IMG/VR virus record: IMGVR_UViG_3300030103_004875
DNA from: a virus
Reading direction: 5' to 3' (one strand)
DNA length: 64,000 nucleotides
The position numbers and the translations under genes were made by a program. The notes beneath the pieces were generated by a model. It searched no databases. It was not told where the DNA came from and worked only from the letters and a program-made list of their open reading frames with translations. This document shows, one piece after another, positions 2,041-51,149 of the stretch (the stretch's first letter is position 1; the number at the start of each line of letters is the position of its first letter).

Positions 2041-3627
2041 ATGACTGTCCCGTACCAACGAAATGATTATGTAATTAATCACGAGGTGAATGTCTGTTTC
2101 GAGGATCTACTCGAAATGACACCCGATGAGTTTCGAGTGTGGGTTGGCAAAATGCGAGATGTACTGAGGCACTCTTGGGACACCTATGACTGCCCTCCTC
2201 GAACTGGCAAACCAGAGTCCAAGATTATTGAAAACTGGAACAAACTAGAAACCTATCCAGTTCATGAATTTGAACACGATGACGAATTGAGTGACACGCC
2301 GAAAGATGTGATTATCAATAAGTCTCGTGGCGGTTCTGAGGTTGATCAATTCTTTGAGAATATGTTCAGGACTCGGATTAATTATACCGATAAAGATAAT
2401 GGGTACTCTATCTACGATTTGATTGCAGATCCCGATAGACTCGATCAGGTGTACAAGGGTTCCCTCAGACACTTCAGACGGGATTCTTTTTACAACTACG
2501 CACTATCTGCTATCAAGAACAGTAAAAAGTATTCAGTCGTATCTGTGGACTCTGGTGAAGAATGGATTCGTGTGTTTTTCGAACAGCCCTCTCTATTCGG
2601 AGATCACGACTTTATATTGGAGCAGGTGAAACTTCGTGACGGACTCAATTCTGGTTACTTTCAACTGGAACAATCAGAAATTCTACAACTGACAAAGGAT
2701 CAAGTTCAGAAATTTAAGGATTGTGGTTGGTTACAGTATCGTCATCATTCTACATTCGATATCGAGAATATGCCCGATGATCGTGTGTATTCTATTCGCC
2801 TCTACACAAAGGGAAAGAAACTGTTCCCTGCTTGCTTTAAGGCTTTTAGAATTGGATATATTCAACCAGCAGTTAATTTTCCTCCCATGACGGCTAAATA
2901 CTTATATGAAAGATTTACTGAACACATCTCCGACAAAACAGATTTGCGAATCTATGATCCGAGTTCTGGTTGGGGTGGCCGTATCCTTGGCGCTATGTCT
3001 GTCCGTGACGATCGCCATATTCGTTACATTGGCACTGATCCCAATCCTGATAATTTCTTTGATGATGGGACTTCTAAATACTCTATGGTTGCGGATTTTT
3101 ACAACACCAAAACCACAAGATCCAATTCTTTCTTCTCCGACACAAATGAATACGAAGTATATCAACTAGGATCAGAAGAGGTTCGTAATGATCCTGATTT
3201 CCAGAGACATAGAGGAAAGGTGGATCTAATATTCACCTCTCCGCCATACTTCAATAGAGAAGCGTATAGCGAAGATGAGAACCAGTCATACAAGAAGTAT
3301 GGTTCTACTTATGAATCGTGGAGAGACGGGTTCCTGCGTCCTACGCTGGAGACCTGTGCGGAGTGGTTGAGGCCGGGAAGATACCTGCTATGGAACATAG
3401 CAGACATTCTGGTAAAGGGAGATTATCTTCCACTAGAAGAGGATTCACAAAAAATCCTCGAAGAAATGGGCTTGGAGTATAAATATAAATTGAAAATGGC
3501 ATTAGAAGGAATGCCCGGACAAAATAGAGTAGGGGAAGATGGAAAGCCTCTTTGTAAGAATTATTGTAAAGTGAATGGAAAACATTTAAAATATGAACCA
3601 GTTTATGTTTTTTGGAAACCACAATGA
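2041..3627 (+). CDS. Amino (N4-C/N6-A) DNA methyltransferase
   Basis: SAM-binding motif YDPSSGWGGR followed by catalytic FTSPPYF. Confidence 0.85.
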   Translation: MTVPYQRNDYVINHEVNVCFEDLLEMTPDEFRVWVGKMRDVLRHSWDTYDCPPRTGKPESKIIENWNKLETYPVHEFEHDDELSDTPKDVIINKSRGGSEVDQFFENMFRTRINYTDKDNGYSIYDLIADPDRLDQVYKGSLRHFRRDSFYNYALSAIKNSKKYSVVSVDSGEEWIRVFFEQPSLFGDHDFILEQVKLRDGLNSGYFQLEQSEILQLTKDQVQKFKDCGWLQYRHHSTFDIENMPDDRVYSIRLYTKGKKLFPACFKAFRIGYIQPAVNFPPMTAKYLYERFTEHISDKTDLRIYDPSSGWGGRILGAMSVRDDRHIRYIGTDPNPDNFFDDGTSKYSMVADFYNTKTTRSNSFFSDTNEYEVYQLGSEEVRNDPDFQRHRGKVDLIFTSPPYFNREAYSEDENQSYKKYGSTYESWRDGFLRPTLETCAEWLRPGRYLLWNIADILVKGDYLPLEEDSQKILEEMGLEYKYKLKMALEGMPGQNRVGEDGKPLCKNYCKVNGKHLKYEPVYVFWKPQ

Positions 3628-4319
3628 ATAGCAGCGAAGAACTAGGATATCGTTTAGAGTCAATGTTTGATGAGTATCTAACCAAGATACAAAATAATGA
3701 ATCTAGTAGAAAGCCTCGATTCTCTAATATTATAGATTCATACAAGACTCCGAAGAAAACTCAAAAAGAATTGTTGGAGATATTTTCTCGCAATCAAGAT
3801 GAGATTCGTTGTGCTATTAGGGGAACAGATCCTCAATGCTCCGAGGCATGGTCTTTTCTGTCTACCACTAAACTTATCAAAATCGATGAGTATCTCACTT
3901 TATTGGTGGATGTTCTAGAGAAAAATAGTAAGATTACACGAAGAAAAAAGAAAATTAATCCTTCTAAACTGATTAAAAATTTGAAGTTTATGAAGGAAGA
4001 CAGTAAGTTAAATATTAAGTCTGTCGATCCAATAAATATAGTTGGTGCGAAGTGTTGTATTCTATATCATAAGAAAAACAATAGAATTGTTTTTCTTGAG
4101 AGTGAAGAGGGATTCACCGTATCAGGCACAACGATCAAGAACTTTAATACAGAAACTTCAGTCATGAAAGCCATACGAAACAACAAACAAATCCTCTCTG
4201 CAATAGTAAACGGCACTCCCCTCTCTGCAAAAAGGCAGATTGATTCTTTAAAATCTAAGTCAATTCCGGCAGTTGGAAGAACAAACGATGAAACGATTAT
4301 ATTGCGGGTGAGTCCATGA
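3612..4319 (+). CDS. Hypothetical protein, resembles conserved T4-like phage proteins
   Basis: 235-aa ORF coupled to its neighbours; basic C-terminal half. Confidence 0.6.
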   Translation: METTMNSSEELGYRLESMFDEYLTKIQNNESSRKPRFSNIIDSYKTPKKTQKELLEIFSRNQDEIRCAIRGTDPQCSEAWSFLSTTKLIKIDEYLTLLVDVLEKNSKITRRKKKINPSKLIKNLKFMKEDSKLNIKSVDPINIVGAKCCILYHKKNNRIVFLESEEGFTVSGTTIKNFNTETSVMKAIRNNKQILSAIVNGTPLSAKRQIDSLKSKSIPAVGRTNDETIILRVSP

Positions 4320-4618
4320 ACGAGAATATTGATTCATTTGTTATTCGCAGAGAATATCAAAAGGGTGATCATTATGACTATGGGGATCTTGTTGAATATA
4401 ATGGAAGTTCATTTTTGGCTTTGCAGTCCGGTAAACTGCCACCACCACTAGTCAACACTGAACTTTGGTATAGATTAAGTTCCATGACAAAATGTTATAG
4501 ATCAGAAACCGCACCTAAATTTTCAGAAGAAGGTGATAAATGGTTGGACCCAACCGCTGGTGTATTGTATACTAGAGTAAAGCAGACAAACGGTGTCATG
4601 TTTTGGATTGAATTTTAG
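4316..4618 (+). CDS. Small fibre-associated-like protein (aromatic beta-module plus GDKW..FWIEF tail)
   Basis: YDYGDLVEYNG module; C-terminus resembles that of the collagen protein at 26086-27489. Confidence 0.55.
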   Translation: MNENIDSFVIRREYQKGDHYDYGDLVEYNGSSFLALQSGKLPPPLVNTELWYRLSSMTKCYRSETAPKFSEEGDKWLDPTAGVLYTRVKQTNGVMFWIEF

Positions 4619-4647
4619 TAACTTTTTTTTTATTTTTGGATTAAACT

Positions 4648-5496
4648 TTGATACTTCTTGATAATAATCAAATACTTCTTGCCAATATTTTTCAGACTAT
4701 GAAACAGGTGGATACTATTGATGAAAATATGCTAAGGCATATGGTTCTCAACACATACAGAATGTATAGATCCATGTTCAAAGACGAGTATGGAGAACTT
4801 GTAATCTGCCATGACTCCAGCAATTGTTGGAGAAAAGACCTATTTTCTTACTATAAGCAAAATAGGAAGACGAAGCAAGATGAATCTGATGTTGATTGGA
4901 AGAGTATATATGATGCTCTCCATGAAATTCGTACAGAAATACAACACAATTTCCCGTACAAGAATATTAAAGTTGACAGAGCAGAGGCTGACGACATCAT
5001 CGCGGTTATTTGTAAAGAGTATCATTCAAAAGAGAAAATTATAATTCTTTCTAATGATAAAGACTTCAAACAACTACAAAAATTTGAAAATGTTAGGCAA
5101 TATTCCTGTATCAAGAAAGATTATCTCATATGTGATGATCCTGATTTTTTTCTAGTTGATCATATTATTAGGGGGGATACCTCTGATGGTATCCCAAATA
5201 TCATGTCAGATGATGATACATTTGTAGTAAAAACTAAAAGACAAAAAAGATTAACTAAAGCCGTTATTTCTGATATTTTAGAAACGTATAACACAACTGG
5301 ATCACCTCCAGAATATTGCTCGGCGGGCTGGGATAGGAATGAAAAATTAATTGACTTGGATTCTGTACCTGATACAATACAGAAAGAAATTATTAACCAA
5401 TACGAAAATAATTCTCACGGAGACAGATCCAAAATTCTTAACTATATGATAGACAATAGACTTAAAAATCTTATAGAGAATCTTGGAGATTTCTGA
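4648..5496 (+). CDS. rnh: T4-type RNase H / 5'-3' flap exonuclease
   Basis: N-terminal ILLD, WRK..F..YK.NR, EADDII, SNDKDF.QL and GDTSDGIPN motifs. Confidence 0.92.
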   Translation: MILLDNNQILLANIFQTMKQVDTIDENMLRHMVLNTYRMYRSMFKDEYGELVICHDSSNCWRKDLFSYYKQNRKTKQDESDVDWKSIYDALHEIRTEIQHNFPYKNIKVDRAEADDIIAVICKEYHSKEKIIILSNDKDFKQLQKFENVRQYSCIKKDYLICDDPDFFLVDHIIRGDTSDGIPNIMSDDDTFVVKTKRQKRLTKAVISDILETYNTTGSPPEYCSAGWDRNEKLIDLDSVPDTIQKEIINQYENNSHGDRSKILNYMIDNRLKNLIENLGDF

Positions 5497-24775: not shown

Positions 24776-24783
24776 TATACATA
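24776..24783 (+). promoter_or_regulatory. Late-promoter variant (TATACATA) upstream of GT2-TPR
   Basis: One mismatch to TATAAATA; intergenic, about 25 nt before the ATG. Confidence 0.4.
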
Positions 24784-26085: not shown

Positions 26086-27489
26086 ATGTCTCAGTTTGTT
26101 CTTCAATCTAAAATTGATAATAAGTTTTCTAAAAACGATCTTTTCATAAAAGCACCTAACAATGTGGGTGTTGATGAAGTTGTAAATTTTGGAGATGGTA
26201 TTTCTAGTATTGTTCTTGAAACCGAGGACAAAACTTCAGTTATCAAATTTATAGGATCTCATAAAACCATTAATGAGTATTTTAGAGAAATAGAGGAAAC
26301 TGAAAGGGATCAGTATATACTCAAGGAAACTTTAAACTCCTCTCTACAAAGAGGGGATGTTTTATTTTCCACCGATAATTCCCCCAACGTGGAAATTAGA
26401 ATCAGTCCCGGTATACACAGTTTGGATGTAGAAAGCACAGATGGAAATGTTTATCGTTTCAGTGGCAGTAAAAATAACATAGATGAACTTTTTAGATACT
26501 TTCCTACCGAAGTTGTGGAAGAGGAGGAGCAAGTTTTATTGGGTGAACAAGGCCCTCCTGGCCCACAGGGTCCTAGAGGGAAAGAAGGTTCTGTTGGACC
26601 TCGTGGGCCTAAAGGAGAAAAGGGCTCTCCCGGACTTCCGGGTACAGATGGTTCAATAGGACCAAAGGGCGAGCAGGGTGAGCAGGGCCCTGTGGGAGAA
26701 AGGGGACCACAAGGTGATCAGGGTCCTGTGGGAGATCCAGGTCCCTCTGGTAAACCGGGTGTTGACGGTAAAGACGGAGAGGTTGGACCTAAAGGAATAC
26801 AAGGAAACGCTGGAGAAATTGGACCTAAGGGTGATCCCGGCGAAAAGGGGGATCAGGGAGAAATCGGTCAGGTGGGCCCTCAAGGTTTAATTGGACCTAA
26901 GGGTGATCCCGGCGAAAAGGGTAAACAGGGATCCAAAGGATCTAAAGGTTCGAAGGGCGATAAAGGTGATAGGGGTGATCCGGGAACTGATGGTAAGGAG
27001 GGCCCAAGAGGACAACGTGGGTTAGATGGTAAGCAAGGACCAAAAGGTGATAAGGGTGATTCCGGGATTGTATCTGCGAAGTATCCTCTTGTATATGATA
27101 CTAATGGTAATGAGATAAGTTTTGATACAAAAAAACTAGAGGAACTTTTAGGTAAATTTAGTAATTTAGGTCCGGGACAAAATGGTCCTGATTATGCTGC
27201 TATGACAGATTGGCTTGCTGCTGCCGGTGGTGCTGTTGCAATAATAGACGGTAACAATAACAATGCCAAAGTAACAAATTCTTTGGGGGATTTTGTAATA
27301 GAGGGTAGTGGAGTTTCCCTAAATAAGTTAGGTAAGACAGTAACCATGACCATTTCTGGGGGTGGCGGGGCAACTACCGTGGTTAGTGATAATGCTCCCG
27401 ATGGAATTTATGTTACCGGGGATAAATGGATTGAGTCTGATACGGGAACACTTTTTACTAGATATCAAGCCTTTTGGGTAGAATTTTGA
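26086..27489 (+). CDS. Collagen triple-helix (Gly-X-Y) fibre protein
   Basis: Long uninterrupted GXY run (GEQGPPGPQ...GDKGDSG). Confidence 0.9.
26817..26921 (+). repeat. Exact 33-bp direct repeat within the collagen region
   Basis: aattggacctaagggtgatcccggcgaaaaggg at 26817-26849 and 26889-26921 (72-nt offset). Confidence 0.9.
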
Positions 27490-42706: not shown

Positions 42707-42719
42707 AAATTTATATATA

Positions 42720-42787
42720 GTGTACACTTAAAATTTAAGTGGATCACTCCTGCGCACGGGGATGCATATGCATCCCCGTGTTTTTTT
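42720..42787 (+). ncRNA. Candidate sRNA A carrying a 16S-3'-end-like (anti-SD) motif
   Basis: TATATATA 42712-42719, hairpin cacttaa/ttaagtg, TGGATCACTCCTGC 42740-42753, then terminator and T7. Confidence 0.45.
42755..42787 (+). terminator. Intrinsic terminator
   Basis: 26-nt perfect palindrome cacggggatgcatatgcatccccgtg followed by TTTTTTT. Confidence 0.85.
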
Positions 42788-42795
42788 GATAAATA
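42788..42795 (+). promoter_or_regulatory. Late promoter (GATAAATA) for the RuvC-like gene
   Basis: NATAAATA ending 5 nt before ATG 42801. Confidence 0.55.
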
Positions 42796-42800
42796 ATAGT

Positions 42801-43379
42801 ATGAGCGAAAAGGAATTTATAGCTGGAATAGATTATAGTTTATGTGGACCTGCAATTTGTATCAGTGATATGAATGAGCCATTTGACTTTTATAGTTGTG
42901 AGTTTTTCTTTCTTACTAATATTAAAAAATATGCAAAGAAAATAAAACAAAATATCACTGGAGAGACATTTCTAGACTATAATCAAGAGATTCAGAGATA
43001 TGAAACAATAGCAGACTGGGCAGTGGATAAGGTTGTGGGGTGCTCTCGCATAGGCCTTGAAGGATATGCTTATAACGCTACCGGAAAGATCTTTCATATA
43101 GCAGAAAATACTGGTGTCCTGAAGTATAAATTATACCAAAAATCTCTTCCTGTTGATGTATTCACTCCCAGCGTAATTAAAAAGTTTGCAACTGGCAAGG
43201 GAAACGCGAGTAAAGAAAAAATGTATGAATCGTTCTTGCAGGAGACAGGTGTTCCCCTCAACTCTTTTTTGGGGATGTCTAGGCAAAAAACGGAACCTCA
43301 GAAAATAAAAAGTCCAGTATCTGATATAGTGGACTCATATTATATTTGTAAATTTTTAAGATATGAAATTATTGTTTAG
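42801..43379 (+). CDS. RuvC-like Holliday junction resolvase
   Basis: GIDYS...P, LEGYAY, IAENTG.LK, KKFATGKGNA.K and D.VDSY motifs. Confidence 0.85.
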   Translation: MSEKEFIAGIDYSLCGPAICISDMNEPFDFYSCEFFFLTNIKKYAKKIKQNITGETFLDYNQEIQRYETIADWAVDKVVGCSRIGLEGYAYNATGKIFHIAENTGVLKYKLYQKSLPVDVFTPSVIKKFATGKGNASKEKMYESFLQETGVPLNSFLGMSRQKTEPQKIKSPVSDIVDSYYICKFLRYEIIV

Positions 43380-47872: not shown

Positions 47873-48131
47873 TTTCTTCTAAAGACTTTCTTATCCATAA
47901 CAAATCTGTTTTTATCTCTGCAAGATCTGTCATCAGTGTTGCACGAAAAGTTTCGCTGGTATCGAGTCGTGAATCTAAACTCACTATATCTTTTTCTATG
48001 AACTGTAATCTAGTGGAAAATGAAGCATCCTTTTGACTAATATAAGCCACAGCAGATCCAAAAGTAATGATCCAGCCTAGCACGGCACTTATTACAGAGA
48101 TCTTTATTCCCTGTTTATTAGTATCAGTCAT
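47862..48131 (-). CDS. Single-TM coiled-coil protein
   Basis: N-terminal TM helix followed by heptads. Confidence 0.6.
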   Translation of the reverse strand: MTDTNKQGIKISVISAVLGWIITFGSAVAYISQKDASFSTRLQFIEKDIVSLDSRLDTSETFRATLMTDLAEIKTDLLWIRKSLEENGR

Positions 48132-50694
48132 TTTTTAATTTACCTTTTTTGCGAGAGACTAAATATGGTGTTTTTGCACCGGGAGTACCCTCTATGTAGT
48201 TTTTTAGTAACTTATCTGTCCCTTCGTCTCCGGCTCCGTGCTCCTCACCTAAGCGATGTTTATTGTCTGCTCGATTCGATCTGACTGATCGTACTCTGAG
48301 ATTAGAATCTCCGTTATTGAGTGCGTTTCCATCCTTATGATCTATATCTTTTCCGTCACCTTTACGGGCTTTTCCCTTTTTAATCATTTTTCTTCTAGCA
48401 AGAACGCGATTTGATCTTTTCTTTCTTTGCTTCGCTTTCCCATGAAATGTTCTATACTCATGCTTATAATCTCTCTTTGAGGGATCATCTTGTTCGAAGA
48501 GTGCAGAAAAAGATTCATTCATTTCATCATCTTCCCTATCCTCTACCGTATCAAAGTCCGGTTTTTCGGGTAAAACTGGAATTTTAGTAGTTTTTCCATC
48601 AACTGTTATGACATTGAAAACTTCATCCTCCTGCATTTTGTTATTTGCATCACCACTCACTGAGATATCAAGGGAACTAGAAAGTTCTCTTAAAATTTCT
48701 TGAGGATTTTTTGTATAAAAATCTGAAAGCATTTCTGGAGTCATGATAAACGCCATATCACCATCTGGTTTTATATTGGGCTTATTTTGCTCAACAATCT
48801 CTAATTTTTTCCCTTTGAGTTCGAATCTGAATGTTGGTTGGGTAATTCTTCCTCTGCTTTTTGCCCTGATCCCGACATAAGTCTTAGGCATTAAACTTGA
48901 GACATAATTACCATCAACATCCCCTATTTCCTCAAACCCTGCGGGACTCAATAGGTGGGTTGCTGCTGCATCCGGATTATCTGCAAATGCTCTACTCCCA
49001 GTTAGTGCCTCGTGAACTAAATGTCTTTTGAAGTCCTCGTTATCAGATAAAAAGGTAGTGAAGTCTTGCTGTAGGTCTCTGGTGAGGGAACCCTTATACT
49101 TTTCCCAGTTGTACTTATCTTGAAGTTTACCATTCTTAAACATCTCTTGGAACCAAGGTTTGTCGCCGTGACGATCCATTGCTTCCTCTAAGTTTTTTGG
49201 ATCAATCATCTTATTTGGTAAAGATTTCAAAGATTTAGACACTTTCTTTGCTGCGGACTGCATAAGTTCATTATCTTGTGTGCCGATCGCTGAGGCGAGG
49301 TTCTCCAGCGTTCTAGCGGTTGTCTGAGCACTCTCGCTGGATAGTTGAATGTCACCTTCCATTTTAACGGATATCCGGTTGTCCCCACAAATTAAGTCTG
49401 TTTTTGGTTCTGGCCTACCGAATATACCAACTTCATCTGAGTGTTTCAGACTTCCTCTGCATTCTTCTGGTATATTTTGCACTGTCTTCTTTGCCATTCC
49501 AAAAACATCTTTACCAAACGCTTTCAGATTATTTCCTGCTAATTCATCTCTCTTTGCTAATGCTTCATCGCTAACACCTGCCGATTTTGCTGCGATATAG
49601 GCAATCGCCCATTCAAACTGTACACCTCTACCCTGAGTTATATTCTTTGCAGGACCGGGATACTCGACATTATCTGGGCTCATTGGGGGTTGAGTTGGCA
49701 TAAAAGGATCTAGTGCATCATACTCTGCTTGTGCTTGTTGCTCTGCTGCCGCTGCGATGTCTTCCTCACTCCCCGGATCTTCCGGAGAACCTTGTTCCGC
49801 TTCTTTTTTCTTGGCCTCTGCCTCTTTTTCAGTTTGTTTTTGATCTTTTACATCTTTCATCATATCAGATACGTCGCCAAATATTTCAATTGAAGTTGGT
49901 GTTTGCTTGAACTTCTTTTGATTTATTGCACCCTGAATGTCTGTCATAGTAGGCTTTGGTTTATCTGGGCCTCCCTTTAGAACAGAATCATCAACAGGAT
50001 CTGGTCGAACCACGACCTCTACGTTACCACTTTTCCTTTTCTGCACTAAGTACAGGTCAGGTGGTAGATATTTTGCTACTTCGTTTAGTAATTCGGGCTT
50101 TTCCATAAATTCGTCGAACTCCTGTTGATCAAACCAATCGAGATGTTCTAGATGTGTAGAGAGTGTTGAGTGAATATTTCTTACCTCTCGATCAGAAAGG
50201 TGTTTTGGCATAATAGATTTAAATGATGTCACACCACTCTTCGCTCGCTTTCTGGCCTCTGTTCCAGATGCACGTTCCACTCTATCATGAGAATCTGGAT
50301 CGCGGTGACCGGCAGATACTACGTTTACTGATTTAAGACCAGAGTGCTTTGCTAGAGCATCTGATTTTTTACTCATTTCCTCGTGTCTATCTGACCCCAC
50401 GACTAATGTTGCATGGGAGTATCCATTCTTAGCGGCATGTTCTGCGGCATGAAACATGTTTCTTACCTTTGGATGGGAAACAACATTATGACCCCTCAGA
50501 ACTTTCTTTGCTATACCGTGCTTAACGTCGGGTGGTAATGGGTTTTTCTTTTTGTCGTGAGATTGACTTAAATATACAGCATGATCCGCGTCAATTTTTT
50601 TGGCGTGATCCTTTACCGCATTTGCTAATTTCAGGTGACCAACATGTGGTGGGTTAAATCTACCAAATGTCATTACAAGGTGTTTGTCTGCCAT
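48124..50694 (-). CDS. Multidomain protein: cytidylyltransferase-like + PD-(D/E)xK-like + HNH
   Basis: TFGRFNPPH.GH, VGSDR, SAG.RDPD; central PKTDL..ISVK; C-terminal DIDHKDGN..NN..NLRV. Confidence 0.75.
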   Translation of the reverse strand: MADKHLVMTFGRFNPPHVGHLKLANAVKDHAKKIDADHAVYLSQSHDKKKNPLPPDVKHGIAKKVLRGHNVVSHPKVRNMFHAAEHAAKNGYSHATLVVGSDRHEEMSKKSDALAKHSGLKSVNVVSAGHRDPDSHDRVERASGTEARKRAKSGVTSFKSIMPKHLSDREVRNIHSTLSTHLEHLDWFDQQEFDEFMEKPELLNEVAKYLPPDLYLVQKRKSGNVEVVVRPDPVDDSVLKGGPDKPKPTMTDIQGAINQKKFKQTPTSIEIFGDVSDMMKDVKDQKQTEKEAEAKKKEAEQGSPEDPGSEEDIAAAAEQQAQAEYDALDPFMPTQPPMSPDNVEYPGPAKNITQGRGVQFEWAIAYIAAKSAGVSDEALAKRDELAGNNLKAFGKDVFGMAKKTVQNIPEECRGSLKHSDEVGIFGRPEPKTDLICGDNRISVKMEGDIQLSSESAQTTARTLENLASAIGTQDNELMQSAAKKVSKSLKSLPNKMIDPKNLEEAMDRHGDKPWFQEMFKNGKLQDKYNWEKYKGSLTRDLQQDFTTFLSDNEDFKRHLVHEALTGSRAFADNPDAAATHLLSPAGFEEIGDVDGNYVSSLMPKTYVGIRAKSRGRITQPTFRFELKGKKLEIVEQNKPNIKPDGDMAFIMTPEMLSDFYTKNPQEILRELSSSLDISVSGDANNKMQEDEVFNVITVDGKTTKIPVLPEKPDFDTVEDREDDEMNESFSALFEQDDPSKRDYKHEYRTFHGKAKQRKKRSNRVLARRKMIKKGKARKGDGKDIDHKDGNALNNGDSNLRVRSVRSNRADNKHRLGEEHGAGDEGTDKLLKNYIEGTPGAKTPYLVSRKKGKLKND

Positions 50695-50710: not shown

Positions 50711-50718
50711 TATTTATA
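50711..50718 (-). promoter_or_regulatory. T4 late promoter TATAAATA
   Basis: Exact consensus on the - strand, followed by GGAG SD and ATG 50694. Confidence 0.7.
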
Positions 50719-50752
50719 AAAAAAATAGGAAGGATGATGCCATCCTTCCTAT
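50718..50752 (-). terminator. Intrinsic terminator
   Basis: 12-bp stem ataggaaggatg/catccttcctat with 4-nt loop, followed by a U-tract on the - strand. Confidence 0.85.
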
Positions 50753-50809
50753 GGACCCGAAATATGTTATTGGATCACCTCCTGCTCTTGAGTATCCGTA
50801 GGTCCATTA
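50718..50809 (-). ncRNA. Candidate sRNA B displaying a 14-nt complement of the 16S rRNA 3' end
   Basis: AATATATA box at 50811-50818; closing stem AUGGACC/GGUCCAU; AGGAGGUGAUCCAA at 50783-50770; terminator. Confidence 0.55.
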
Positions 50810-50816
50810 GTATATA

Positions 50817-51149
50817 TTATTTTTTAGCAACGAAACGGAAATTTTTGTGGTGTTTTCTTTTTCCAGACATAACTTCATATAGAGCAGACTTGGTTAAATT
50901 GTGATCTCGGCAAAATTCTAAAACATTTTCTATCTCAAAAACCTCCCCTTCTCGCTCAAAAACAAGTATTCTTCGCTCTGGGATTTTTTCTAAAGTCTCC
51001 CATTGAAAATATCTTCCCGTTTTATGAAATTCTCCACCATAAGTCTTACAGAAGTTATTCCTGTGAAAATTTGCACGAGAATCCTCGTTAACTTTCACCC
51101 ATGTTCTAGTATTTTTTTTATTTACATTTTTTGGATTGTAATCTGACAT
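50817..51149 (-). CDS. Hypothetical protein with HTH/NUMOD-like C-terminus
   Basis: FCRDHNL.KSALY.V..GKRKHHK pattern. Confidence 0.55.
   Translation of the reverse strand: MSDYNPKNVNKKNTRTWVKVNEDSRANFHRNNFCKTYGGEFHKTGRYFQWETLEKIPERRILVFEREGEVFEIENVLEFCRDHNLTKSALYEVMSGKRKHHKNFRFVAKK

Follow-up and report, generated by a model that had tools for sequence, protein, structure and literature searches.

The window analysed here, by which we mean the whole 64-kb stretch of DNA, originates from a marine T4-like phage that has not been cultured. The gp61-type primase encoded in it is approximately 40% identical to the primases of cyanomyophages, and the closest cultured relative of its RuvC-like resolvase is that of Pelagibacter phage Mosig (43%). 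A DNA search of cultured phages gave no match, and a scan of the window for tRNA and tmRNA genes found none. Two short units, here called A and B, are found on opposite strands of the window, and each of them is followed by a protein-coding gene on its own strand. The features of both units and of the adjacent genes are collected in Table 1.

Table 1. Positions of units A and B and of the adjacent genes in the window
Feature	Position	Strand	Remarks
Unit A	42712-42787	+	a 95-aa ORF on one side, the RuvC-like gene on the other
Late-type box TATATATA of RNA A	42712..42719	+	putative promoter; predicted +1 at 42725
5' hairpin of RNA A, CACUUAA-AAU-UUAAGUG	42725..42741	+	minimum-energy fold
Unpaired seed UGGAUCACUCCUGC of RNA A	42740..42753	+	imperfect copy of the 16S rRNA 3' tail; complements the RNA B core
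Intrinsic terminator of RNA A	42754..42787	+	terminator scan; 12-bp GC-rich stem (42754-42781) with GGAUG..CAUCC, loop AUAU, U7
Late box GATAAATA, 5-nt spacer and RuvC-like resolvase gene	42788..43379	+	box 42788-42795; ATG at 42801; phrog_159 / PF02075
856-aa gene	48124-50694	-	cytidylyltransferase-like N-terminus, phrog_22045 unknown middle, HNH C-terminus
TATAAATA box	50718-50711	-	ahead of the 856-aa gene
RNA B, ~89 nt	50717..50805	-	closing stem, super-SD loop, terminator, U8
12-bp terminator of RNA B, then U8	50752-50725	-	terminator scan
Closing stem of RNA B, GGACC/GGUCC	50805-50801 with 50757-50753	-	fold
Invariant core AGGAGGUGAUCCA in the loop of RNA B	50771..50783	-	complements the 16S tail exactly
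GCAGGAGGUGAUCCA, stretch of B pairing with A	50785-50771	-	sequence
Late-type box AATATATA of RNA B	50811..50818	-	putative promoter; predicted +1 at 50805

The original prediction, made from the letters of the window, had described unit A as a box followed by a hairpin, a motif, a terminator and a run of seven T residues, and each of these elements was found where it had been placed. RNA A has a predicted length of approximately 63 nt and folds with a z score of -6.4 compared to shuffled sequences; the corresponding score of RNA B is -4.0. According to the fold prediction, the seed of RNA A is unpaired with a probability of 0.88–1.0. The sequence GGAUG..CAUCC is present in both terminators, as had been pointed out, but it is retained only in the closest relative and appears to be incidental.

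Late promoters of phage T4 consist of an 8-bp box at positions -13 to -6, and an A at -13 is a common variant of this box (PMC2988020). With this spacing, the predicted first RNA bases are 42725 for A and 50805 for B, which in both units is the first base of the 5' stem, and we infer that both units are transcribed from their boxes. No RNA sequencing run was found to contain the stretch, and two metatranscriptomes from samples with this DNA yielded no contig matching it, which speaks neither for nor against transcription. The same type of box is also found ahead of genes at 24776, 53767 and 59691; such a box is joined by a structure and by a strong intrinsic terminator only at the A and B sites of the 64-kb window. 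Inspection of the late-type boxes revealed two classes of spacing to the ATG (in the window at 42788-42803 and at 53767-53752 on the minus strand, and in the relatives L143, L149, L107 and L135). In the 5-nt class the predicted +1 is the A of the ATG itself, and the RuvC-like gene, the SET-domain gene and others would give leaderless late mRNAs. In the 15–18-nt class the predicted +1 is the first G of GGAG/GAGG, and the mRNA would start at its own SD. An SD was counted for 32 of 69 phage ORFs, including genes behind late-type boxes, with short leaders that begin at GGAG/GAGG. The distance of 5 nt between the GATAAATA box and the ATG of the RuvC-like gene is kept in relatives, and a leaderless late mRNA is predicted for this gene. 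We regard it as context, and it is not put forward as a target of RNA A.

Relatives of the window were gathered by using the RuvC-like protein as a query against IMG/VR and metagenome contigs. On a RuvC tree the carriers of A and B form one well-supported clade, the core clade, to which a divergent lineage, G005, has to be added. Unit A is carried by 15 lineages, 14 of the core clade and G005, where it is altered, and unit B was found in seven. Covariance models of each unit gave no further copies in approximately 0.6 Mb of more distant relatives. An exact-pattern scan for A in IMG/VR returned 39 matches, five of them real units and the remainder mostly chance or coding matches. The B core is absent from Pelagibacter phage Mosig, where the sole near-match is an unrelated hairpin.

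The box of unit A reads TATA[T/C/A]ATA in all 15 lineages, and CACUU is always located 5 nt downstream of it. The box, UACACUU and AGUGGAUCAC are unchanged across the core-clade lineages, and G005 retains the box and UGGAUCAC. These 8 nt of the seed are invariant in all 15 lineages, whereas the C/U-rich stretch that follows differs; after GGAUCAC the lineages read UCCUGC, UAUCCUGC, CUCAUAU, CUCCAG, CCCAG, ACUCCAUAU or CCUUUUCC. The canonical CCUCC is whole in just one of approximately ten variants and is broken differently in nearly every other lineage. The terminator varies in sequence as well, with compensatory changes at all 11 pairs among nine lineages. The CACU/AGUG stem of the 5' hairpin is identical in all core-clade lineages, so that covariation neither supports nor opposes this stem.

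In several lineages the start of the RuvC-like gene adjoins the A hairpin, whose 3' arm bears the late box. Unit A is undamaged in L135, the closest relative, although an insertion of approximately 2.3 kb (2480-4780) parts it from the RuvC-like gene there. Beyond this insertion, a terminator with the arms CACCUCCC/GGGAGGUG precedes the RuvC-like gene. Members of a different clade (L197, L199, L201-L206, L208, L209 and L211) have another conserved structured element upstream of their RuvC-like gene. It reads GGACUUGGAACUUCGCUACC..., followed by AGGAGGAG and a hairpin-terminator, and it may be another RNA gene.

The 13-nt core of unit B is the same in all seven lineages, while the flanks of the loop, the closing stem and the terminator diverge. 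Compensatory changes are found at 13 of the 15 pairs among these lineages, with 98% of the cells paired. In the core clade the box is located 4–5 nt ahead of the closing stem; the box of G005 is less clear. Reading of the sequences showed no conserved frame behind the super-SD core, and no ATG or GTG frame shared across lineages; short frames within B were seen in just two of five lineages and are non-homologous. A small ORF behind the super-SD was rejected, as it is not conserved across lineages. A type I toxin-antitoxin system was also rejected, since on reading B lacks a conserved small toxic ORF, and so was an alternative fold of the attenuator or anti-terminator type, which on reading is not conserved between lineages. 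According to fold predictions the core is partly masked in each lineage by an internal 16S-like segment, and this segment is lineage-specific (GGAUACC upstream of the core, or CUCC or CACUUUCC downstream). The modelled folds suggest that the core may be a partly locked site.

Homologues of the 856-aa protein, with 28–70% identity, are encoded directly downstream of B in every lineage. The gene is an unusual domain fusion, and in its homologue in G005 the cytidylyltransferase N-terminal part is without detectable similarity. A search for related loci using the N-terminus of the 856-aa protein as a query gave none. Homing-type HNH genes are found on both sides of B. The B units of L083/L107 and L129 carry a 20-nt stretch, GUCAGGAGGUGAUCCAGCAC. 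G001/G002 and the divergent, rearranged G005 share it without a single difference; the remainder of the unit differs. An unrelated family in other viral contigs (IMG/VR L217-L219, L221, L223-L227 and L230-L234) has the same 13-nt super-SD followed by AUCUCCC, which is able to fold back on it, and then CUGUGGGUAAAACAG and a terminator. Three different genes are located upstream of it, and the family may hold a six-codon mini-frame.

Co-occurrence in related genomes had been named as a check on the pair, and both units are indeed present in all six lineages with contigs spanning both sites, despite rearranged genes. In the window, B is located 8 kb from A on the opposite strand; in G005 the gene order is new, and the two units are on the same strand. 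Relative to its own box and terminator, A of G005 keeps the 16S-like sense and B keeps the SD sense. Neither unit was found in L062, a 50-kb contig placed as sister to G005 by the RuvC tree, nor in five contigs of 73–96 kb from more distant relatives. This presence pattern is consistent with joint gain or loss, with few independent events, fragmentary contigs and a co-occurrence that is largely phylogenetic.

After rearrangement each motif still has the sense set by the promoter and terminator of its unit, which suggests a function at the RNA level and speaks against the speculation that the motif common to A and B is a DNA-level site (for protein binding, GATC methylation or recombination). 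Such a site could have been suspected, as TGGATCAC with its GATC is present in both units and homing-type HNH genes flank B. However, the motif tracks promoter and terminator and not the DNA strand, being direct in the window and inverted in G005, and the stems of both units covary as RNA. Nor is coincidence a good explanation, since an exact 13-nt complement of 16S rRNA kept across seven lineages is not due to chance. We consider a DNA site or coincidence highly improbable.

A and B thus share, in conserved form, the features of small RNAs as far as these can be read from sequence: a promoter by the T4 late-box rule, a structured 5' end, an accessible seed, a terminator and no ORF. They also show two properties of a sponge pair, complementary seeds and co-occurring genes. 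By these sequence features, A and B are a real, conserved and uncatalogued pair of phage RNA genes. A search of the whole window against Rfam 15 gave no match at the gathering thresholds, and the best scores on A and B were 19–22 bits compared to thresholds of 40–60.

The motif of A had been proposed to pair with B over 14 bp with one bulged G. This was reproduced, with a duplex energy of -25.0 kcal/mol computed from the seeds (the whole-transcript duplex calculation ignores internal structure). Furthermore, the comparison of duplex energies that had been suggested came out in favour of the pair: the A:B site lies approximately 5 sd below the mean of 12,794 30-nt windows taken from both strands, and it is among the best three to four non-self sites. 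The A seed has some of its best computed off-target sites at copies of GGUGAUCC in the gene at 26086-27489. These copies occur three times at a spacing of 72 nt (26831-26981), which suggests a repeated protein segment.

In each of the seven lineages the own A:B duplex has an energy between -20.6 and -25 kcal/mol, and for pairing of the B core with a generic 16S tail the range is -26.5 to -29.3 kcal/mol. This target, which we take to be nucleotides 1528-1540 of 16S rRNA (E. coli numbering), is matched by the core up to the end of the accessible tail. On a plain SD, the A seeds reach only -5 to -9 kcal/mol, compared to -13 for the 16S tail. The conserved 8-mer UGGAUCAC of A pairs with the non-canonical extension GUGAUCCA of B, which is absent from ordinary ribosome-binding sites. 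Because its core is invariant and pairs more strongly with the 16S tail than with its own A, B appears to be constrained by the rRNA and not by A. The conserved part of A pairs with GUGAUCCA, and its binding to a plain SD is poor, so that A looks tuned to B and not to mRNAs generally. These energies and this pattern of conservation give B the appearance of being matched to 16S rRNA, and A that of being matched to B rather than to ordinary ribosome-binding sites.

Two parts of the original prediction fared less well in this comparison. The terminal GC had been taken as a sign that A and B are matched to each other and not only to rRNA. The own pairs sum to -112.7 and permuted pairs to -106.4 on average, 16 out of 120 permutations being equally good (p about 0.13), and the extensions are found in only two to three lineages. 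Own pairs are not significantly better than permuted ones, and lineage-specific co-adaptation of A and B does not reach significance. The suggestion that A occludes ordinary AGGAG sites is weak in view of its mostly broken CCUCC and the low energies on a plain SD. What remains of the proposed pair at the RNA level is carried by conserved, ORF-free, separately bounded and co-occurring units; the mutual matching through the terminal GC is not part of it.

The explanation we prefer, though tentatively and as something possible rather than probable, is that B docks on the anti-SD of the 30S subunit and that A is its anti-decoy. A and B would be stand-alone small RNAs, each transcribed from a late-type promoter and ended by a terminator that belong to it alone. 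RNA B would expose, in a stem-closed loop, an exact 13-nt complement of the free 16S 3' tail with no start codon behind it, and would most likely serve as a decoy docked on the anti-SD tail of 30S subunits. RNA A would offer an imperfect copy of the 16S tail between its 5' hairpin and its terminator, and would most likely pair with B in competition with the ribosome. The A:B ratio would then set the number of ribosomes with a free anti-SD late in infection. A more far-reaching version, which we regard as doubtful, is an all-RNA rheostat in which B occupies the anti-SD tail of the host 30S subunit and A titrates B, so that the balance of late translation would move between mRNAs led by an SD and leaderless late ones, that of the RuvC-like gene for example.

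Some observations are not easily accommodated by a decoy and its anti-decoy. Both boxes are of the late type, so A and B would be produced together and no timing logic is visible. The genes of the phage use SDs themselves, and a global block of the anti-SD would therefore hurt the phage too. Furthermore, the invariance of the A hairpin stem is left unexplained by this model.

The units could also be read in other ways. RNA A may be a base-pairing repressor sRNA, whose C/U-rich seed masks the ribosome-binding regions of phage or host mRNAs, with B as a sponge that copies the target site. The plan of A, a hairpin, an open seed and a terminator, is the classic layout of a trans-acting sRNA, and pairs of sRNA and anti-sRNA are known from prophages (review PMC12197685). 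This is nevertheless unlikely, since among gene starts in the approximately 10-kb flanks of seven lineages we found none with a conserved pairing to its own A seed, and since CCUCC is not conserved in A and pairing with a plain SD is weak. Moreover, a sponge would be expected to track A, but B is invariant and fits 16S rRNA better than any A does. A protein decoy is less probable still. Here A alone, as a mimic of the 16S tail, or the A:B duplex, as a mimic of the SD:anti-SD helix, would divert a protein such as bS21 or a nuclease that cuts the anti-SD. A mimic of this helix in OLE RNA binds bS21 (PMC12054373), toxins that cut the anti-SD region are described, and the invariant A hairpin beside the seed could serve as a protein site. 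On the other hand, five related contigs, themselves 9–39% complete, have no bS21 gene, the A hairpin does not resemble helix 45, and no candidate partner protein was found.

Each unit is in strict synteny with a single gene downstream, the RuvC-like gene for A (in all but one lineage) and the 856-aa gene for B, and a role in cis fits this as well. A and B might then act independently, and would be complementary to each other only because each of them relates to the SD/anti-SD code. For B this would mean an orphan SD carried either by the 3' UTR of the HNH-like gene upstream or by a leader of the 856-aa gene that arises through read-through, with the task of a stabiliser similar to STAB-SD (see below) or of a ribosome standby pad, and A could be a terminator/leader module ahead of the leaderless RuvC-like gene. 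In support of this speculation, the A hairpin with the late box on its 3' arm abuts the RuvC start in several lineages, an arrangement that recalls that of T4 gene 49. However, a strong terminator and a separate TATAAATA box are located between each unit and its gene, and A is intact despite the 2.3 kb inserted in L135, which suggests independence from the downstream genes. Furthermore, reading of the sequences revealed no conserved anti-terminator alternative, and a role in cis leaves the invariant 16S-tail-like 8-mer of A without a reason. We consider independent action in cis rather improbable.

What the pair suggests is a so far undescribed mechanism, made of RNA alone, by which ribosomes would be tuned during infection. 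The takeover of translation by phages is known to proceed through proteins and their activities, such as RegB, phage-encoded bS21 and ADP-ribosylation. If B is a decoy and A its antagonist, this pair of small RNAs would open a new route, and a very economical one, through the sequence by which every bacterial ribosome selects its mRNAs. In that case B would be expected to attach to the 30S subunits of any bacterium, and A to undo this, and nature would offer a model for tools that turn SD-dependent translation on and off. The mixture, in this clade, of leaderless late genes and late genes whose mRNA starts at the SD may have its explanation here as well. We know of no natural trans-acting anti-SD RNA decoy with its own RNA antagonist, and none was found in the literature searched. 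Neither the full-text search nor a 2025 review of phage sRNAs gave a phage RNA aimed at the 16S tail.

A close parallel to B is STAB-SD, an orphan SD that Agaisse and Lereclus reportedly described in 1996 as a stabiliser in the 5' UTR of cryIIIA of Bacillus thuringiensis. Like B, STAB-SD is an extended SD without a start codon and is thought to bind the 3' end of 16S rRNA. The orphan SD of B complements this end, and a start codon at a suitable distance is lacking. STAB-SD is a cis-acting element of a Gram-positive host, placed at the 5' end of an mRNA, whereas B belongs to a phage and has its own box and terminator as well as a partner RNA. By its sequence context B does not appear to occupy a 5' UTR, as a terminator with U8 and the TATAAATA box precede the next gene in every lineage. 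RNA A has its parallels in small RNAs with C-rich or CU-rich seeds, such as RNAIII and the Rsa RNAs of S. aureus, and RoxS. Both these RNAs and A expose an anti-SD-like stretch beside a terminator. In RNAIII, the Rsa RNAs and RoxS the UCCC/CCUCC core is conserved, whereas in A this core is degenerate and the upstream UGGAUCAC is conserved.

Among ribosome-associated non-coding RNAs, a fragment of tRNA-Val from Haloferax binds the small ribosomal subunit and competes with mRNA (PMC5711459), as is proposed for B. Its sequence logic is not that of A and B, it differs from them in origin and organism too, and it is not known to have an antagonist RNA. P6 of OLE RNA is a natural mimic of the SD:anti-SD helix which binds the ribosomal protein bS21 (PMC12054373). 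P6 is intramolecular, part of a Bacillota RNA of approximately 600 nt, and its SD-like half is short and imperfect, whereas the predicted A:B helix would join two small phage RNAs over 13–14 bp. Finally, prophages encode anti-sRNAs or sponges, AgvB against GcvB and AsxR against FnrS (Tree et al. 2014, cited in PMC12197685). In these systems a phage-encoded RNA neutralises another RNA by copying the binding site of its partner, which is what we propose for A and B. AgvB and AsxR target host sRNAs, whereas both A and B are encoded by the phage and would mimic the anti-SD tail and an ideal SD.
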